Below are positions 3,956 to 11,061 of a DNA stretch of 20,306 nucleotides, in pieces (position 1 is the stretch's first letter; each line of letters begins with the position of its first letter). Location: contig WAKA01000025.1 of NCBI GenBank assembly GCA_015523565.1, positions 1-20,306 of the forward strand. Direction: 5' to 3'. The position numbers were made by a program, and so were the translations under genes. The notes beneath the pieces were generated by a model. That model did no database searches, had not been told where the DNA came from, and saw only the letters and a program-made list of their open reading frames with translations. The DNA is from Candidatus Heimdallarchaeota archaeon (lineage in GTDB: Archaea > Asgardarchaeota > Heimdallarchaeia > Heimdallarchaeales > Kariarchaeaceae).

Positions 3956-4465
3956 ATGTCAACTACACCTAAAATCGAAAAAGAGACAAACAGGAACATT
4001 ATTTTCGAAAAAGCAAAATCCCATCTGGAATTATTGAAAAAAAATGAACTTAAGGCAAATGACTTTGTGATGATGTTCAATTGTTTTGAGATAAGGGTCT
4101 TGTTGGGACAAAGATTCACCCAAGGAAGCATCACAGATTGTAATTTCAAAATTCCAGAAAGAAAAGAACTAATAGAACTGTATCAGCAACCTTACAATGA
4201 AACAGGACTTTCGGTAGGGGCAAGGGCACTTACAAAACATTATTTGAGATCAACATTTTGGAACAGACCAAGAGGAAAGACAGATCAAAAGAATCTAATT
4301 GCATTGCAACAGATCGAAACAATTTTGGAAAATGTGGTCTGGTGGAACATGTTTTACCATTTTAAGCATGAATATGTTTTGGAAATAAGAACAGAAGGAG
4401 GATATGGGGCAAGATGGGGAAAGGAAAAATTCATCGGGTTTGTTGAACCGTTCTTTATGGACTAA
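3956..4465 (+). CDS. Hypothetical protein, putative toxin-like ribonuclease domain (GARALxKH ... EIRxxxGYGARW ... FIGFxEP)
   Basis: The motif string LSVGARALTKH, KN, EIRTEGGYGARW and KFIGFVEPF looks strongly conserved. ATG 3956 is preceded by GGAGAGG. The ORF track start at 3746 would overlap the ATPase by 92 nt, and ATG 3875 is an alternative start. Confidence 0.7.
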   Translation: MSTTPKIEKETNRNIIFEKAKSHLELLKKNELKANDFVMMFNCFEIRVLLGQRFTQGSITDCNFKIPERKELIELYQQPYNETGLSVGARALTKHYLRSTFWNRPRGKTDQKNLIALQQIETILENVVWWNMFYHFKHEYVLEIRTEGGYGARWGKEKFIGFVEPFFMD

Positions 4466-4940
4466 ATTTCCAATATTTATCTGTCAAGTGATGAAGAACT
4501 TTTATTGCTTTTCCTTTTTCCATTGCATCCATGTCTACAGCATCATATTTTGAGATCCCTATAGCCAAGGGAGAATTTCTTGTTTCTTCAACAATCAGTA
4601 CAGGCTCGTTTTCCACAACATTTGGATCAATCCAGACAATTCCAGGTCTCATCACGTCTGCACCGTTTGTGACAAATTTGATTGCACCCGTATCAACTTT
4701 AACAATCGGAAGATTCACATTATGACTCTGGACAAATTGAAGTGTTGGGATAATATAATCATTTAAACGTATCAGGATAGGGACTCCGTCCAATGCAATG
4801 ACATTGCCATCCTCCATTTTGTATTCAACTGCATTTGCCTTCTTTGTTAAGAGAGACCCCAAACTGGGTATTATATCAGAAAGTTGCCGAACAAGCTCTT
4901 TTTTTTCTTTTCCCGACAAGGGCACCATTTTTTTTTTCAT
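4455..4940 (-). CDS. DUF1947 + PUA domain RNA-binding protein (archaeal MCT-1/Tma20 homolog)
   Basis: Signature VKVDTGAIKFVTNGADVMRPGI, PLAIG and KGKAIKVLHHLTDKYW, with N-terminal pre-PUA IPTL. Start is ATG 4940 or TTG 4946. Confidence 0.93.
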   Translation of the reverse strand: MKKKMVPLSGKEKKELVRQLSDIIPSLGSLLTKKANAVEYKMEDGNVIALDGVPILIRLNDYIIPTLQFVQSHNVNLPIVKVDTGAIKFVTNGADVMRPGIVWIDPNVVENEPVLIVEETRNSPLAIGISKYDAVDMDAMEKGKAIKVLHHLTDKYWKFSP

Positions 4941-4989
4941 TTGCAAGATAATGTTGTTTCATGACCTTTTATTTTTTAGCATTGAGATG

Positions 4990-6903
4990 CTAGGTTAAAC
5001 GAATGGTGGTTCCAATAGGAGGAGCCAATGACTCACGCTTGACTGCCTTGCCGACACTCTTTGCAAGATTTCGACATTTTGTTTCCTCACCATGCACCAT
5101 GACAAAACGTTTTGGACGGGGAACCAGCCTCCTTACGTATTCCATCAATTCCTTTCTGTCACTATGACCAGTAAATCCAGATATCTTATGAACCTCCAAA
5201 TTGACTTTCAACACATAAGTCCTACCCTTCTCATCTTTCATCTTAATTTCCCTTGCCCCATCTTCCACTTTTCTTCCCAAAGTTCCTTTTCCTTGATATG
5301 AAACAATGACAAGTGAATTTTTTGGGTCCTCGGCAAGTGCAGTGAAATATTGTACGGAGGGACCACCTGCCAACATACCACTTGTTGCGAAAATTATGCA
5401 GGGGTCACCCAATACAATTTCCTCTCGGGTTGTTTTGTCAGAAATGTTATGAAAGAAGGGGGCGAGAAATGGATTGTCTTGGTTTTGCAATATGCGTTCA
5501 CGTAGTTCCTTTGAAAGAAATTCAGGAAATGCAGATGTAATGGCATTTGCCTCGCGGATCATACCATCAACAAAAACAGGAACTTCAGGTATCGCCCCAG
5601 AACGGATCATATCCTCAACGATCACCATCAATTCTTGAGCCCTGCCAACAGCCAATACAGGGATGAGAACTTTACCCCCACGATTGATAGTATCATTGAT
5701 GATTTGCTTAAGTTTTTCCTCCGATTCTTCTCGGCTTGGCACAACATCCTCAGGGTTGCCATAAGTAGATTCCATAACCATTGTCTCCAAACGAAGGAAT
5801 TTAGAAGTGGCACGATCCAAAGTCCTTGACTTGGCAAATCGAAAGTCATGGGCAAAAGCAATGTTATGAAGACCATTGCCAATATGCATATGCGCAATTG
5901 CAGATCCCACAATGTGACCTGCATTATGAAATGTAAGCTTGACGCCTGCGGCAATATCGGTAACCTCACCATAGTTAAGTGGGATTGAATGCAGAACCAT
6001 TTCGCGAATGTCATTTTTTGAGTATGGCAAGAGTTTTCCTTCAGCTTCAGCAACATCCAAGTAGTCCAGTTGAAGCAAGGTCATGAGATAGAGTGTAGGA
6101 GGGGTGCAATAAACAGGACCACGATAACCGTATTTGAAAAGATACGGAACAAAGCCAGAATGGTCAAGATGGGCATGCGTAATTACAACTGCATCCAACG
6201 TATTGATATCAAATTCTGGAAGGTCGAAACGAGGCAGGTATTGAACGGGGGCGTCATACCCGACATTAACACCGCAATCAACAATGATGTTGGAATCCCC
6301 TGTTTGTAAAAGGGTTGAAGATCGCCCAACCTCCAAATACCCCCCCAATGCAGTGATACGCAGAATTTTCTCTCTGAAAAAAGTTGGACGATTTATGATA
6401 TGACCAATCTTCCTTAACGCCTTTTTTCGATTTTCCGTTTCTGAAAAAAGAATATGGCGAATTGACCGGATCATACTGGATTCTATTGGCGGGGTTCGGT
6501 AGAAATTTGGACGCCAACCAGTTTTGCGGAGTATTTCTAGAGATTCAGAATTGTTTTTTGTCTTGAATAATTCAGGTCTATCAAGTTCTATAATAACTTC
6601 ACCAAGAGCATGATCGAAATCAATGTAAGAAATTGAAACGCCATCACCAAGAACTGACTTGACAATTTCTTCAGTTTCTTTTGTATCTGTTCGAATTGAG
6701 GGATCAGATCTAAGAACAACACGTCTTCTTAATGACTTTGCCAAATTTGACACGAGATTCGGGTCTTCAATTGAAACACCTATGTTTTTACAATAGATTG
6801 CAACTTCAGACCCTTCAAACTCAATGTTGGTTACATTTGCAGCTTTGGGAACTAATCTATTTACTTCTCTTTTGATTTCGTCAAGCGTTTGATAATCTTT
6901 CAA
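4990..6903 (-). CDS. fttA: beta-CASP ribonuclease aCPSF1 / transcription termination factor FttA (KH-KH-MBL-beta-CASP)
   Basis: 637 aa with an N-terminal KH region (IEFEGSEVAIY, GWRP), MBL motif THAHLDHSG, AGHIVGSA, and beta-CASP motifs GHSD and VHGE. Confidence 0.96.
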   Translation of the reverse strand: MKDYQTLDEIKREVNRLVPKAANVTNIEFEGSEVAIYCKNIGVSIEDPNLVSNLAKSLRRRVVLRSDPSIRTDTKETEEIVKSVLGDGVSISYIDFDHALGEVIIELDRPELFKTKNNSESLEILRKTGWRPNFYRTPPIESSMIRSIRHILFSETENRKKALRKIGHIINRPTFFREKILRITALGGYLEVGRSSTLLQTGDSNIIVDCGVNVGYDAPVQYLPRFDLPEFDINTLDAVVITHAHLDHSGFVPYLFKYGYRGPVYCTPPTLYLMTLLQLDYLDVAEAEGKLLPYSKNDIREMVLHSIPLNYGEVTDIAAGVKLTFHNAGHIVGSAIAHMHIGNGLHNIAFAHDFRFAKSRTLDRATSKFLRLETMVMESTYGNPEDVVPSREESEEKLKQIINDTINRGGKVLIPVLAVGRAQELMVIVEDMIRSGAIPEVPVFVDGMIREANAITSAFPEFLSKELRERILQNQDNPFLAPFFHNISDKTTREEIVLGDPCIIFATSGMLAGGPSVQYFTALAEDPKNSLVIVSYQGKGTLGRKVEDGAREIKMKDEKGRTYVLKVNLEVHKISGFTGHSDRKELMEYVRRLVPRPKRFVMVHGEETKCRNLAKSVGKAVKRESLAPPIGTTIRLT

Positions 6904-7014: not shown

Positions 7015-9966
7015 CTAGAATTGGGCATTTTGCTTTCTGACAATAAATTTATACAATTCAAGGACACCTACAGGGAATAAGCCAAAGATTATTGACAAGA
7101 TGAGATCAAGCGGACCCAAAAAAACAAGATCAAAGTTTATGCCCAAATAATTTACCAAAAAGAACTGAATCGGATAAATATACATCAATCCAAAATGAAC
7201 CACCAGTGGTAGGAGAACCATGCTCCAGATAAACAGATTTGCGTCCTTGGATCCAGAAATAATGTCTTTGTTCACTCGTCGGATGCTAAGGGTAAGCATT
7301 GTTTCTGCAATAAAAATCACTGTCAAAAGCATTGTTCTTGCCTTGGCTTGTTCAAGACTCCTAGGTTGCTTATACCCACCTACATCAGAAAGGACAGGTA
7401 CATACCCCCAATTGTTGAATGAAGACAAGCCAAAAATCCCCAAAAATTGTTCGTCATGCCCAAAATAGATGAAAAGAACGGAGCCCGCAAGAGCAAGCCC
7501 AAATAAAAACAACCCAACAATTAATTTTTTGGACAAGAGTTCACTGTGTTCCCTTGGTTTGAGTTTCATGATATCCCTGTCTTTGTTTCCGAAAATAATA
7601 GCCAAAGGCGGGAATGCATGGGCGACTGTAAAAATATATGTCCGCTGAAAATTGTTGAGCAACTGCAGAAAGTCACCATTGACCAAGAGAAATTGGGTAG
7701 AAAAGTACATTATTGCTTCGCCAAAATTTACCGCTATATAGAAGAAAATCATCATTCGTATCTTTTCGTAAAGGTTTCTGCCTTCTTCAACACCTGTAAC
7801 TAAACTCACATAGGAATCATCTGCCAAAATAATATCGGCAGCATCCTTCGTCACTTCTGTCCCCGTTATGCCCATAGCAACACCTGCATCAGCAAGGGTT
7901 ATTGCCAATGCATCATTTACACCATCTCCTGTCATTGCAACGACCCGTCCCTTGTCTTGATACCGTTGGACAATGATCTTTTTGTCTTGAGGAGATACAC
8001 GGGCAAAAACAGAGACTTTGAAGAAATCGTCTTCTGAAAGGGATGAAATATCCTTACCTTCAACCACTTTTTCATCTGGATCCAAAATGCCAACTTGACG
8101 GGCAATGGTACCTGCTGTTTCAGGGGCATCACCCGTGATCATGACTGGAAAAATCCCTGCCGCATCTAGTTTGGCAACTGCCTCTTCAACACCCTGCCGA
8201 GGAGGATCCAAAATGCAAGCAAAACCAAGATAAACCAGTTCAGATTCTGCGAGCTTTCTTTCTTCCGCCTCTGAAAGGTTGGATGGAAATTCCTCATTAA
8301 GCACTTTATATGCAAATGAAATCACACGGAACCCCAAGGATGCAAATCGATTGGCACGTTCCATTATTTCCTCAGCTTTCTTTGTTGTTAATTCGTGAAC
8401 CTCAAGATTTTCGGAATAATATTTGCAAAGCGGTAGAATGAAATCAGTTGCCCCTTTTGTAAAAATGAGATGCCTATTGGATTGTGAATCAAAAAAGAGA
8501 CCAGACATTCGTTTGACTGAAGAATCAAATGGGTATGTTTTTACCCGTTCAAACCTCAATGACATTTCCTTTGGGTCTATGCCTGACTTCAGAAGAAGAC
8601 GCAACATTGCCCCGTCTGTTGGATTTCCAATAACATTGTAACCAAGATGGGCTTTTTCTGTCAATTCCTCTTGAACCAATGTAGCATCATTGTTCCTTGA
8701 TGCATTGGCAAGAATAAGATAAAGCTGTGAATCACGGTCTATATCCTTTAACCCATCCTCTTCAGGATCAACAAGTGTAGAAGAGTAAAGACTTTCCCCA
8801 TCTTCCATCGGAAATATTGCAAAGACACCATCATCTTTCTTGACGCCATAGTATCGAGAAACATCCCAAAGACGGACAACAGTCATTTTTGAAGTGGTGA
8901 TTGTGCCTGTCTTATCAGAACAAAGTACAGAAATCCTACCAAGAGTTTCTACGACAGAAAGTTTCTTTACAATTACATTGATTGTAGCCATTTGCAAAAC
9001 TCCCGTAATCAGGACGACCGTTGTAAGCAATGGAATATTGATAGGCATGACAGCCATGGCATTGACTATACTATCAGTGAGATCCTTTGCAAAGAGAAAG
9101 AATGTGAGATTGACATTTGATTTAAGTCTCAAATAGAGCCGAACAAGAATTGCAATAATCAAAAAGAAAACCATAAGTGTGCCCAATCCCTTGCCCAAAC
9201 GGTTTATTTTCGTCCGTAAGGGAATTTCAACAGTTTGAAGCTCATTCATTGTAGATGCAATTGCACCCAATTCTGTCCTGTTACCAGTAGCAACCACTAC
9301 TGCCCTAGCAGAACCTGTTTGGACAAATGTGCCCAAATAAACCATATTACGGCGTGCGTCTATTGGTGTTTCAGGGGGAAGAGGGGAAGCCAATCCCTCT
9401 GTAGAGAATTTTTGGACAGGATGACTCTCTCCAGTCAGGGATGCCTCATTCACTGAAAAATTGCTTGCGGATATCAATCGTGCATCTGCTGGGATTTTAT
9501 CCCCAATAGACAACTCTAAGATATCCCCAACAACAAGTGTTTCTGCAAGCACTTCAGTCTTAATCCCATCACGCAAAACTCGTGCCGTGGGAGGGCTTAA
9601 GTTTTTCAATGATTCTATTTTTCTTTGGGCACGATATTGCTGGAAGATTGCAAGCAACATATTCAATGCAATGACCACAAGCCAAAAGGTAACTTGTCCT
9701 CTCACCTCAGGGACAATGAATGATAGAGTAAGCATGATAGCAGCCATTATGAGGTAAATTGTAATTAATGTGTCAAACAAGGGAGCCAAGTAAACAGTCC
9801 AAATTCCAGGTTTTTTAACTTCAATTACGTTTTTCCCCATCTGGGAAAGCCTGTCTTTGACTGTTTCGGATGATAAACCTGTTTTCGGGTCTACATCACA
9901 AAGCTTGAATGTTTCTTTAAGATTAAGTGCATGCGGCGATACGATAACAATTTGTCTTGTGTCCAC
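7015..9966 (-). CDS. P-type ATPase with P2A/SERCA-like architecture and a non-canonical membrane binding site
   Basis: TGES, DKTGTIT, KGATD, DPPR, TGD and TGDGVNDA are all present, with about 10 TM segments. TM4 reads PINIP instead of PEGLP. The likely start is GTG 9966 (ORF track: 10005). Confidence 0.95.
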   Translation of the reverse strand: MDTRQIVIVSPHALNLKETFKLCDVDPKTGLSSETVKDRLSQMGKNVIEVKKPGIWTVYLAPLFDTLITIYLIMAAIMLTLSFIVPEVRGQVTFWLVVIALNMLLAIFQQYRAQRKIESLKNLSPPTARVLRDGIKTEVLAETLVVGDILELSIGDKIPADARLISASNFSVNEASLTGESHPVQKFSTEGLASPLPPETPIDARRNMVYLGTFVQTGSARAVVVATGNRTELGAIASTMNELQTVEIPLRTKINRLGKGLGTLMVFFLIIAILVRLYLRLKSNVNLTFFLFAKDLTDSIVNAMAVMPINIPLLTTVVLITGVLQMATINVIVKKLSVVETLGRISVLCSDKTGTITTSKMTVVRLWDVSRYYGVKKDDGVFAIFPMEDGESLYSSTLVDPEEDGLKDIDRDSQLYLILANASRNNDATLVQEELTEKAHLGYNVIGNPTDGAMLRLLLKSGIDPKEMSLRFERVKTYPFDSSVKRMSGLFFDSQSNRHLIFTKGATDFILPLCKYYSENLEVHELTTKKAEEIMERANRFASLGFRVISFAYKVLNEEFPSNLSEAEERKLAESELVYLGFACILDPPRQGVEEAVAKLDAAGIFPVMITGDAPETAGTIARQVGILDPDEKVVEGKDISSLSEDDFFKVSVFARVSPQDKKIIVQRYQDKGRVVAMTGDGVNDALAITLADAGVAMGITGTEVTKDAADIILADDSYVSLVTGVEEGRNLYEKIRMMIFFYIAVNFGEAIMYFSTQFLLVNGDFLQLLNNFQRTYIFTVAHAFPPLAIIFGNKDRDIMKLKPREHSELLSKKLIVGLFLFGLALAGSVLFIYFGHDEQFLGIFGLSSFNNWGYVPVLSDVGGYKQPRSLEQAKARTMLLTVIFIAETMLTLSIRRVNKDIISGSKDANLFIWSMVLLPLVVHFGLMYIYPIQFFLVNYLGINFDLVFLGPLDLILSIIFGLFPVGVLELYKFIVRKQNAQF

Positions 9967-10038
9967 AAGATGTAAATTAAAATATAGCTTTAGTAATTTT
10001 CCCAATATTGAGATTTATTATGTTAAATTTGAATTATT

Positions 10039-11061
10039 TTATTTTCTTTTACGAACAATGGCAACAACTGCAAAGAGTCCTGCAAGAGGTGCAAGAATGT
10101 TGATTGGGGAGGTTTTCCCTTCTGCGGGCTCAGAGGTTGCTTCTTCTTCAAAGAGGAAGGAGATCAAAGCATCAACCATAATAGAACCATAATGGAAAGT
10201 ACCAGCCTTTTCCAAGACATTGCCATACATGTTCTTGTAGTCTGCAAAGTTTACTTCACCAGACACAATAACAGAGCTTGTATTCATTGATTCAACAACA
10301 AGCATTGGCAAATTGCCTGTTGCGTTGATGCTTGCATAATAGTCAAAAGCAGTTGCACTAAGATCTTGGTCAATACCTTTTGCCTTGTCAGAACTGGAGA
10401 TAACAACTTCAACGTTATCAACATTTGCATTGCGCAAGTCTGCTGGAGCACCGTCCTTCATGTAGAAAACGGCGGTAGGACCGTGGAATGGCATCCTGAA
10501 TGGGGCAACTGTGTCATTGACATATTCCTTGAGTTCTGTGGCAATAGGACCACTGCCCAATGTATTGGCAACAACCCTGTAATCAGCCCCGTCATTGCTT
10601 GTGTCATCACTGACAGCACCTGCATCAAGCCTTAAAACAGAGCCGACGGTTTCAAGAACAGGGTTAAGAAGGCTTGCATTAAAGTAGCTGCCATAATCAC
10701 TATCACCTGCAACCCACAAGAGTTTGTCACCCTTTTCAAACCATGTCTTGATGAAGCTCAGGTCATCAGATGAAGTGAATTGATTCCCTGGCAAGAGCAA
10801 TACATCAACATCATCAGTCAATTTTGCCTTGAGTTGATCAATGGTCTCAACATCAGTCCCATTGATAACAGTATTGCCTGCATTTGTATAATTGGTGTAG
10901 AAACCATTAAAGTCACTGTGAGATGGATCATTGCCACCGTAGATCAAAAATGTCTTGCCAGTGACCAATGATAGCTCGTGACCAACAACAGGAGTATTGA
11001 ATGCTGAAAATGCCATGATTGCAACCATAAGCATTGCAGCAGTGAATAGTTTTCCTTTCAT
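10039..11061 (-). CDS. Secreted, C-terminally anchored cell-surface glycoprotein with a GATase-like (GIFT/DUF4350-like) domain
   Basis: Signal peptide MKGKLFTAAMLMVAIMAFSAF. Core DVDVLLLP...LSFIKTWFEKGDKLLWVAGDSDY...LNPVLE. Six N-x-S/T sequons. C-terminal KTSPINILAPLAGLFAVVAIVRKRK. GGAGAG SD upstream. Confidence 0.8.
   Translation of the reverse strand: MKGKLFTAAMLMVAIMAFSAFNTPVVGHELSLVTGKTFLIYGGNDPSHSDFNGFYTNYTNAGNTVINGTDVETIDQLKAKLTDDVDVLLLPGNQFTSSDDLSFIKTWFEKGDKLLWVAGDSDYGSYFNASLLNPVLETVGSVLRLDAGAVSDDTSNDGADYRVVANTLGSGPIATELKEYVNDTVAPFRMPFHGPTAVFYMKDGAPADLRNANVDNVEVVISSSDKAKGIDQDLSATAFDYYASINATGNLPMLVVESMNTSSVIVSGEVNFADYKNMYGNVLEKAGTFHYGSIMVDALISFLFEEEATSEPAEGKTSPINILAPLAGLFAVVAIVRKRK

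Follow-up and report, generated by a model that had tools for sequence, protein, structure and literature searches.

An Asgard-centred family of P2-type ATPases with a rebuilt, histidine-containing transport site: candidate single-site cation pumps

We analysed a P-type ATPase gene of Candidatus Heimdallarchaeota archaeon (Asgardarchaeota; Kariarchaeaceae), located on a 20,306-nucleotide (nt) stretch of DNA that we refer to as the window (assembly GCA_015523565.1, contig WAKA01000025.1, positions 1 to 20,306). Its product has the scaffold of a P2-class calcium pump and carries in transmembrane helix 4 (TM4) the motif PINIP, by which we name the family to which it belongs. Judged from sequence alignments and family conservation, site II of the calcium pump SERCA has been erased in this protein, and the residues retained from site I (Asn, Glu and Glu), together with a histidine in TM6 (H783) and an asparagine in TM4 (N310), make up a strictly conserved polar cluster spanning TM4, TM5, TM6 and TM8. 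We incline to the view that the PINIP pump is a single-site cation pump, which in each cycle would move a single small cation through the rebuilt central site; its cargo is probably a small cation other than calcium. Residues are numbered throughout according to the 983-amino-acid (aa) protein read from a GTG start at window position 9966, to which the database protein P0002 is identical.

The positions that define the transport site are as follows.

9031..9045, minus strand: TM4, P308-I-N-I-P312 in place of PEGLP, from the alignment to SPCA1; I309 stands at the position of the site-II Glu, and N310 is a polar residue specific to the family.
7717..7731, minus strand: TM5, V-N747-F-G-E750, equivalent to the site-I ligands N768 and E771 of SERCA in the SERCA2 alignment.
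7606..7647, minus strand: TM6, QRTYIFTVAHAFPP, running from Q774 to P787 and including R775, F779, A782, H783 and P786, from the alignments to SPCA1 and SERCA2.
7303..7305, minus strand: TM8, E888, equivalent to E908 of SERCA in the SERCA2 alignment.

In a HMMER alignment to human SPCA1, PINIP falls on PEGLP and the TM6 segment 'yiftvahafpp' on 'lwiniimdgpp', which in SERCA terms replaces E309 with Ile and G310 with Asn in TM4. Alignment of the C-terminal third to SERCA2 places F779, A782 and H783 at N796, T799 and D800, and sets vNfgE on sNvgE in TM5 and iaEtm on tiEmc in TM8, with N768, E771 and E908 all kept (as N747, E750 and E888). A first-pass annotation of this DNA, made from the letters alone, had named the same PINIP-for-PEGLP exchange at the same coordinates, the same three substitutions in TM6 at a place that agrees with nt 7606-7647, and the same retained residues in TM5 and TM8; the alignments agree with it on each point. 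D800 of SERCA bridges both Ca2+ ions. On these alignments site II is abolished, because Ile and Phe replace its Glu and Asn (E309 and N796) and the bridging Asp has gone (D800 to His), and N310 adds an Asn to the unwound stretch of TM4.

Conservation of these positions was examined in 139 family sequences, down to about 31% identity. In TM4, P308 is conserved in 100% of them, I309 in 89% (the position is always hydrophobic), N310 in 91% (Ser in the other 9%) and P312 in 96%; in TM5 and TM8 the values are 94% for N747, 100% for E750 and 96% for E888; and in TM6 they are 98% for Q774, 64% for R775, 82% for F779, 99% for H783 and 99% for P786, with a hydrophobic residue at the position equivalent to T799. 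No conserved Cys or Met was found within the membrane helices of the site in the same alignment. The patterns P[IV][NST]IP and QxxYIFxxxHxxP occur in all 120 of the closest homologues (41-74% identity), and an exhaustive search of 1.84 billion cluster representatives returned, above about 470 bits, proteins with a PxN[IFL]P-type TM4 and the TM6 His, and, below about 452 bits, canonical PEGLP/NLVTDG pumps. The TM4/TM6 pattern is, on these alignments and searches, far beyond chance. The 'added Arg' noted earlier in TM6 does exist here, as R775 directly following the TM6 Gln, but is variable in the family, and the accompanying suggestion that a His and an Arg act as a built-in cation is at best half right, the His being all but invariant and the Arg not.

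We considered and rejected a trivial origin of the pattern. One-off decay, a pseudogene or an assembly error in a former Ca2+ pump has the loss of three classical ligands in its favour and nothing more, and we give it practically no credence: the frame is open over 983 aa, the motifs are kept across the 139 homologues and a deep clade, and contigs assembled separately, within the same study, from another hydrothermal-vent sample, which cover the whole gene, show (together with a short contig from a third sample) zero differing letters at TM4 and TM6. Elsewhere in the gene four letters differ in the sister samples, two of them synonymous (8134 and 8167) and two of them C>A changes that convert Leu to Phe (window 7441, Leu842Phe; 9130, Leu279Phe); these changes are low-depth strain variation outside the site motifs. 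Sequencing runs X3 and X4 contained only small shares. The first-pass annotation had allowed that homologues or reads might reveal PEGL and NxxTD in place of the altered motifs; close homologues and sister contigs instead keep PINIP and the TM6 His. Its argument that four concerted changes represent a switch rather than decay has held up, as these changes are conserved and define a whole Asgard-centred clade.

The open reading frame (ORF; 7015..10005, minus strand) encodes a complete P-type ATPase, whose catalytic features lie as follows.

7015..9966, minus strand: P-type ATPase coding sequence, 983 aa from GTG 9966 (ORF, Pfam domains, identical database protein).
9424..9435, minus strand: A-domain dephosphorylation motif TGES, T178-S181, read in the translation; G179 and E180 are invariant in the family alignment.
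8902..8916, minus strand: phosphorylation motif D351-K-T-G-T, 43 residues after P308 (translation, alignment).
7912..7929, minus strand: hinge motif GDGVND, G680-D685 (translation, alignment).

GTG 9966 is a predicted start; reading from an in-frame TTG at 10005 would lengthen the protein by 13 aa, and the A/T-rich sequence 5' of the ORF does not decide between the two. The Pfam domains stand in P2 order (Cation_ATPase_N, E1-E2_ATPase, Cation_ATPase, Hydrolase, Cation_ATPase_C), and the motifs LTGES, CSDKTGT, FTKGA, DPPR, MITGD and TGDGVND were all read in the translation, in keeping with the earlier statement that every catalytic motif (TGES, DKTGT, KGA, DPPR and TGDGVND) is intact; TGES was found in 235 of the collected proteins. 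The profile of the P-type superfamily (TIGR01494, HAD-IC) is passed at 259 bits against a cut-off of 62. An AlphaFold2 model built with 65 family sequences has 10 membrane helices, a mean predicted local distance difference test score (pLDDT) of 87 and a predicted template-modelling score (pTM) of 0.83. The catalytic machinery is ordinary, and the gene is therefore expected to encode a functional P-type ATPase with ATP-driven cycling of the usual Post-Albers (E1/E2) kind. Short contigs that belong to P-type ATPases of other organisms are recruited in large numbers, in each of the four sequencing runs, to the DNA coding for GDGVND (window 7909-7943), and a doubled apparent read depth over the same interval is an artefact of these foreign contigs.

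The central site has not been emptied by the loss of site II: conservation of E750, E888, N747 and H783 runs at 94-100%. That the canonical pocket keeps its ionisable residues almost without variation argues for a bound small cation, and it is this that leads us to prefer a single-site cation pump. In such a pump D351 would be phosphorylated and then dephosphorylated by TGES, and a single small cation, bound among N310, N747, E750, H783 and E888, would be moved once per cycle. The Glu-His pair would suit the handling of a monovalent ion or a proton, which we put forward tentatively; with somewhat greater reserve, a borderline divalent metal from the transition series, for example Mn2+ or Fe2+, would sit well with the two carboxylates, the imidazole and the amides. 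A His-Glu pair is also found in the last helix of the P1B-4 pumps for Co2+ and Fe2+. The lack of conserved Cys or Met in the membrane helices argues against soft metals. A precedent for a P2 pump that lacks the M6 Asp and still moves Na+ or K+ is given by the P2D (ENA) pumps, in which an otherwise universal Asp of helix M6 is missing and a nearly charge-free membrane domain is the hallmark (PMC3355532).

Several points weigh against a single-site cation pump. No experimental report on any member of the PINIP family was found in the literature, and the gene neighbours at eight loci gave no hint of a substrate. His is a poor ligand for Na+, K+ and Ca2+. The P2D pumps, which serve as the monovalent precedent, have lost the TM5 and TM8 glutamates that the PINIP family keeps. 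The Ile followed by a polar residue in TM4 (PI[N/S]I) resembles the PISL motif of P4 lipid flippases. Near-restriction of the family to Asgard archaea (see below) argues somewhat against generic metal detoxification, since transfer would be expected to carry a detoxification pump from one sediment microbe to another. A lineage-specific role in cell biology would match confinement to Asgard archaea no less well.

It is improbable, in our estimation, that the protein continues to pump Ca2+ (or Mg2+) through the retained site I alone, as database annotations say. The equivalents of N768, E771 and E908 are indeed kept, the databases label family members Ca2+-transporting ATPase, and a census of Asgard transporters enters the homologues as putative Ca2+ ATPases (TC 3.A.3.2.21; PMC7997004). 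The annotations are automatic, however; the Ca2+-bridging D800 is His in 99% of members and the T799 position is hydrophobic; and none of the NCBIfam equivalog models for Ca2+ pumps reaches its cut-off (TIGR01522, 457 bits against 798; TIGR01116, 396 against 703; the PMCA-type model, 350 against 507). A canonical PEGLP/NxxTD pump is also present in nearly every sampled Asgard genome, and in the window's own genome it is the PEGLP/NLVTDG pump of contig C126 (L008), so that the PINIP pump is not redundant with Ca2+ pumping.

The first-pass annotation had favoured a lipid-flippase-like pump or an intermediate towards the P4 class. In P4 flippases the A-domain motif is DGET, with an Asp unique to that class, and the Ile of PISL in TM4 forms a hydrophobic gate (PMC11460456). 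A translocase of lipids or amphiphiles, analogous to P4 pumps or their forerunner, would pass an archaeal lipid headgroup along a groove between TM2, TM4 and TM6 and past the TM4 Ile, and TM4 does come near to PISL: Ile at the E309 position is followed by Asn, or by Ser in 9% of members. The family is also nearly Asgard-specific and multi-copy, as might suit a role in membrane biology, and one Thorarchaeote pump locus lies near genes for Glycos_transf_4, MMPL and polyprenyl synthase proteins, an anecdotal observation. We nevertheless judge a lipid or amphiphile translocase unlikely. The P2 pattern PxxxP is preserved in TM4 down to its second Pro; the spacing from P308 to D351 is 43 residues in 154 of 155 family proteins, as in all 102 canonical P2 proteins compared, so there is no P4-type insert between TM4 and the P domain; the A-domain motif (178-181) is TGES; and TM5 reads VNFGE, without the P4 Lys (YKN), the invariant mid-membrane E750 being found instead, along with E888 and H783. 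In TM6, P4 pumps retain Asn where the PINIP pump has Phe. With the P4 profile TIGR01652 (cut-off 431) the protein reaches 105 bits, all from cytoplasmic stretches of the N and P domains (the best at 480-648), and no P4 structure occurs among the top 50 Foldseek matches.

No conserved partner gene beyond lineage-level synteny was found in the window and seven related loci, eight loci in all with seven distinct contexts, and no CDC50 domain or CDC50-like neighbour was found in these eight loci, a search that a distant, unlinked partner would escape. The objections to a true P4 pump that the first-pass annotation had itself raised (TGES, no TM5 Lys, no CDC50-like gene) thus all stand, while its preferred reading fares badly: the TM4 Ile with its polar neighbour is the one P4-like feature, the other P4 marks tested are absent, and a lipid-flippase reading of the PINIP pump appears poorly supported. 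DGET strings in two proteins of the collection (P0078 and P0170) are chance matches adjoining a true TGES.

Very doubtful is the broader proposal that the PINIP family as a whole comprises not ion pumps but Asgard-specific lipid or amphiphile translocases, perhaps the prokaryotic stock of the 'eukaryote-only' P4 (or P5) pumps; if it were true, there would be an ATP-driven flippase in archaea, and membrane asymmetry would be tied to eukaryogenesis. We also think it quite unlikely that the cargo is an organic cation such as a polyamine-like amine, or another non-classical substrate, moved in the fashion of P5B pumps. The two conserved intramembrane carboxylates could bind an amine, and what P5 pumps turned out to carry was no less unexpected, but the P5 profile reaches 220 bits, the fold matches P2 pumps and gene context offers no hint. 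P5 pumps carry PPALP or PPELP in TM4, where the present protein has PINIP.

Family placement relied on curated profile scores and on a tree of unlabelled canonical P2 neighbours. This tree (FastTree) took the P1B pumps of the window's genome as outgroup; in it, 40 family rows group as a single clade with support of 87, rising to 98 without the two deepest rows, and its sister is a clade of the 31 nearest canonical pumps (support 96). Within the family, branches are as long as those of the canonical clade, which points to an old family. Of the seven P-type ATPases in the window's genome, four are P1B pumps, one is a canonical pump and two are of the PINIP type, the second of which (contig C61, L010:3525-6428, plus strand) has 968 aa, is about 51% identical to the first and reads QRAYIFSIMHGIPP in TM6. 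A family profile found matches of 1000 bits or more in 52 of 101 Asgard genomes, many of which carry 2-5 copies and nine of which carry tandem pairs; the 20 matches inspected between 760 and 863 bits all proved to be canonical PE[GAS]LP pumps. The conservation of PINIP and of the TM6 Phe/Ala/His pattern in an Asgard clade, which the first-pass annotation had envisaged, is thereby borne out, with one clade, about half of the Asgard genomes, a near-invariant His and a predominant Phe.

When one genome per species was scanned for PINIPLL[TV]T, 210 confirmed loci were obtained among 185,579 prokaryotic species. Taxon labels were taken from the best 80 of these 210 loci, and all of those 80 but one are Heimdall-, Kari-, Hod-, Hermod-, Thor-, Prometh- or Odinarchaeota or 'uncultured archaeon'. 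The sole exception (L098, DATKTW010000083.1) is labelled Candidatus Nanopelagicaceae bacterium; it has a G+C content of 31% and includes, besides a zinc-ribbon TFB-like ORF, two P-type ATPase ORFs side by side, of which one carries PINIP, and from these features it is probably a misbinned archaeal contig, which is likelier than transfer to an actinobacterium. Remoter family members are labelled Korarchaeota, Helarchaeota and Nitrososphaeria. By tree, profile and motif scan, the PINIP family is a large, old subfamily that branches next to the prokaryotic P2A-like Ca2+ pumps and is nearly confined to Asgard archaea. Head-to-tail tandem pairs of PINIP-type genes, 60-1000 nt apart, are frequent and occur at L017:4848-10949 and in genomes G008, G019, G025, G030, G040, G049, G057, G071 and G083, which suggests paralogues with split specificities or in joint use.

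In the window, the product of the gene directly upstream of the pump (10039-11061, minus strand) has 340 aa. A signal or anchor helix at its N-terminus is followed by an ectodomain, which bears several N-x-S/T sequons and a weak DUF4350 match, and by a C-terminal TM helix ending in RKRK, a topology loosely like that of pump beta subunits. This gene adjoins the pump only in kin that are 74% identical, is displaced in a 60% relative and is absent beside remoter members. Downstream, on the same strand, lie a gene for FttA/aCPSF1 (KH, metallo-beta-lactamase and beta-CASP domains; 4990-6903, minus strand) and a PUA-domain gene (4455-4946, minus strand). A run of T follows the pump's stop codon, so the pump and the downstream genes are probably transcribed separately. 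The order of pump and FttA is retained in the 74% and 60% relatives; a functional link between the two was considered and rejected, the arrangement reflecting general lineage synteny and the orientation differing in L017. Genes for small Arf/Ras/Roc-type GTPases lie less than 2 kb from family members in one Kariarchaeaceae contig (L017:3967-4518) and one Korarchaeota contig (L019:9548-10129); this may be coincidence, as these genomes carry many such GTPases.

We found no paper that mentions the PINIP motif or describes the family, and a review from 2023 on unsolved problems of P-type ATPases contains no such archaeal pumps; the Asgard transporter census has the homologues among its putative Ca2+ ATPases (PMC7997004). 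The PINIP family is thus apparently an undescribed P2-like subfamily with a distinct transport site. Transport sites define the subfamilies of P-type ATPases, and each new type of site has so far meant a new class of substrate. Here a His-centred, strictly conserved site is set on a calcium-pump scaffold in about half of the sampled Asgard genomes, often in several copies, and pumps of this type are routinely mislabelled 'Ca2+-transporting ATPase'. Once the cargo is known, thousands of annotations would be corrected and the classification of P-type ATPases would gain a branch; ion, metal or membrane homeostasis in the archaeal lineage nearest eukaryotes would be illuminated as well.

Among known classes, the PINIP pump is nearest to the P2A pumps (SPCA1/PMR1, Listeria LMCA1 and SERCA1/2), which give its best matches in sequence, profile and fold. 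The type II profiles score 457 bits (PMR1-type), 398 (ENA-type), 396 (SERCA-type), 371 (Na,K-type) and 350 (PMCA-type), and the other class profiles score 322 (Mg-type), 292 (H+-type), 220 (P5) and 105 (P4); no curated subfamily cut-off is reached, and the generic P-type model alone passes. The top 50 Foldseek matches of the AlphaFold2 model are all P2 pumps (SPCA1, SERCA, Na,K- and H,K-ATPase, LMCA1), with template-modelling scores (TM-scores) up to 0.77, and the relatives of known structure that match best are SPCA1, LMCA1, Na,K-ATPase and SERCA. With P2A pumps it shares domain order, 10 TM helices, TGES, the 43-residue spacing between TM4 and DKTGT and SERCA-like TM7-10, and with SERCA in particular the equivalents of N768, E771 and E908 in site I. 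Unlike P2A pumps, it has a hydrophobic residue at the E309 position (in 139 of 139 family members) and His at the D800 position (99%), and its family forms a clade of its own beside the canonical PEGLP pumps.

The P2D (ENA) pumps resemble the PINIP pump in lacking the M6 Asp, and their profile is the second best, its 398 bits falling in one stretch over TM1-6. That score is nonetheless below the TIGR01523 cut-off of 645, and whereas P2D pumps lack the TM5 and TM8 glutamates, the PINIP family keeps E750 and E888 and adds a His; P2D pumps are eukaryotic (fungi, mosses, protists), and the PINIP family is archaeal. P3A proton pumps (AHA2, Pma1 and the archaeal MJ1226 type) share with it a TM4 of the form P-I-x-x-P, with Ile at the E309 position, and a generic TM2 Asn (N102). 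They differ in the essential TM6 Asp (D684 of AHA2), which is His here, in agreement with the earlier remark that the Asp needed by P3A pumps is missing, and in TM5, where NxxE stands instead of the P3A Arg; TIGR01647 gives 292 bits against a cut-off of 615. Unlike the P4 flippases (ATP8A1/2, Drs2 and Dnf1, with CDC50), the PINIP pump retains an acidic central site. By the measure of its sequence, it has a P2 scaffold, yet fails the defining ligand tests of P2A, P2D, P3A and P4 alike.

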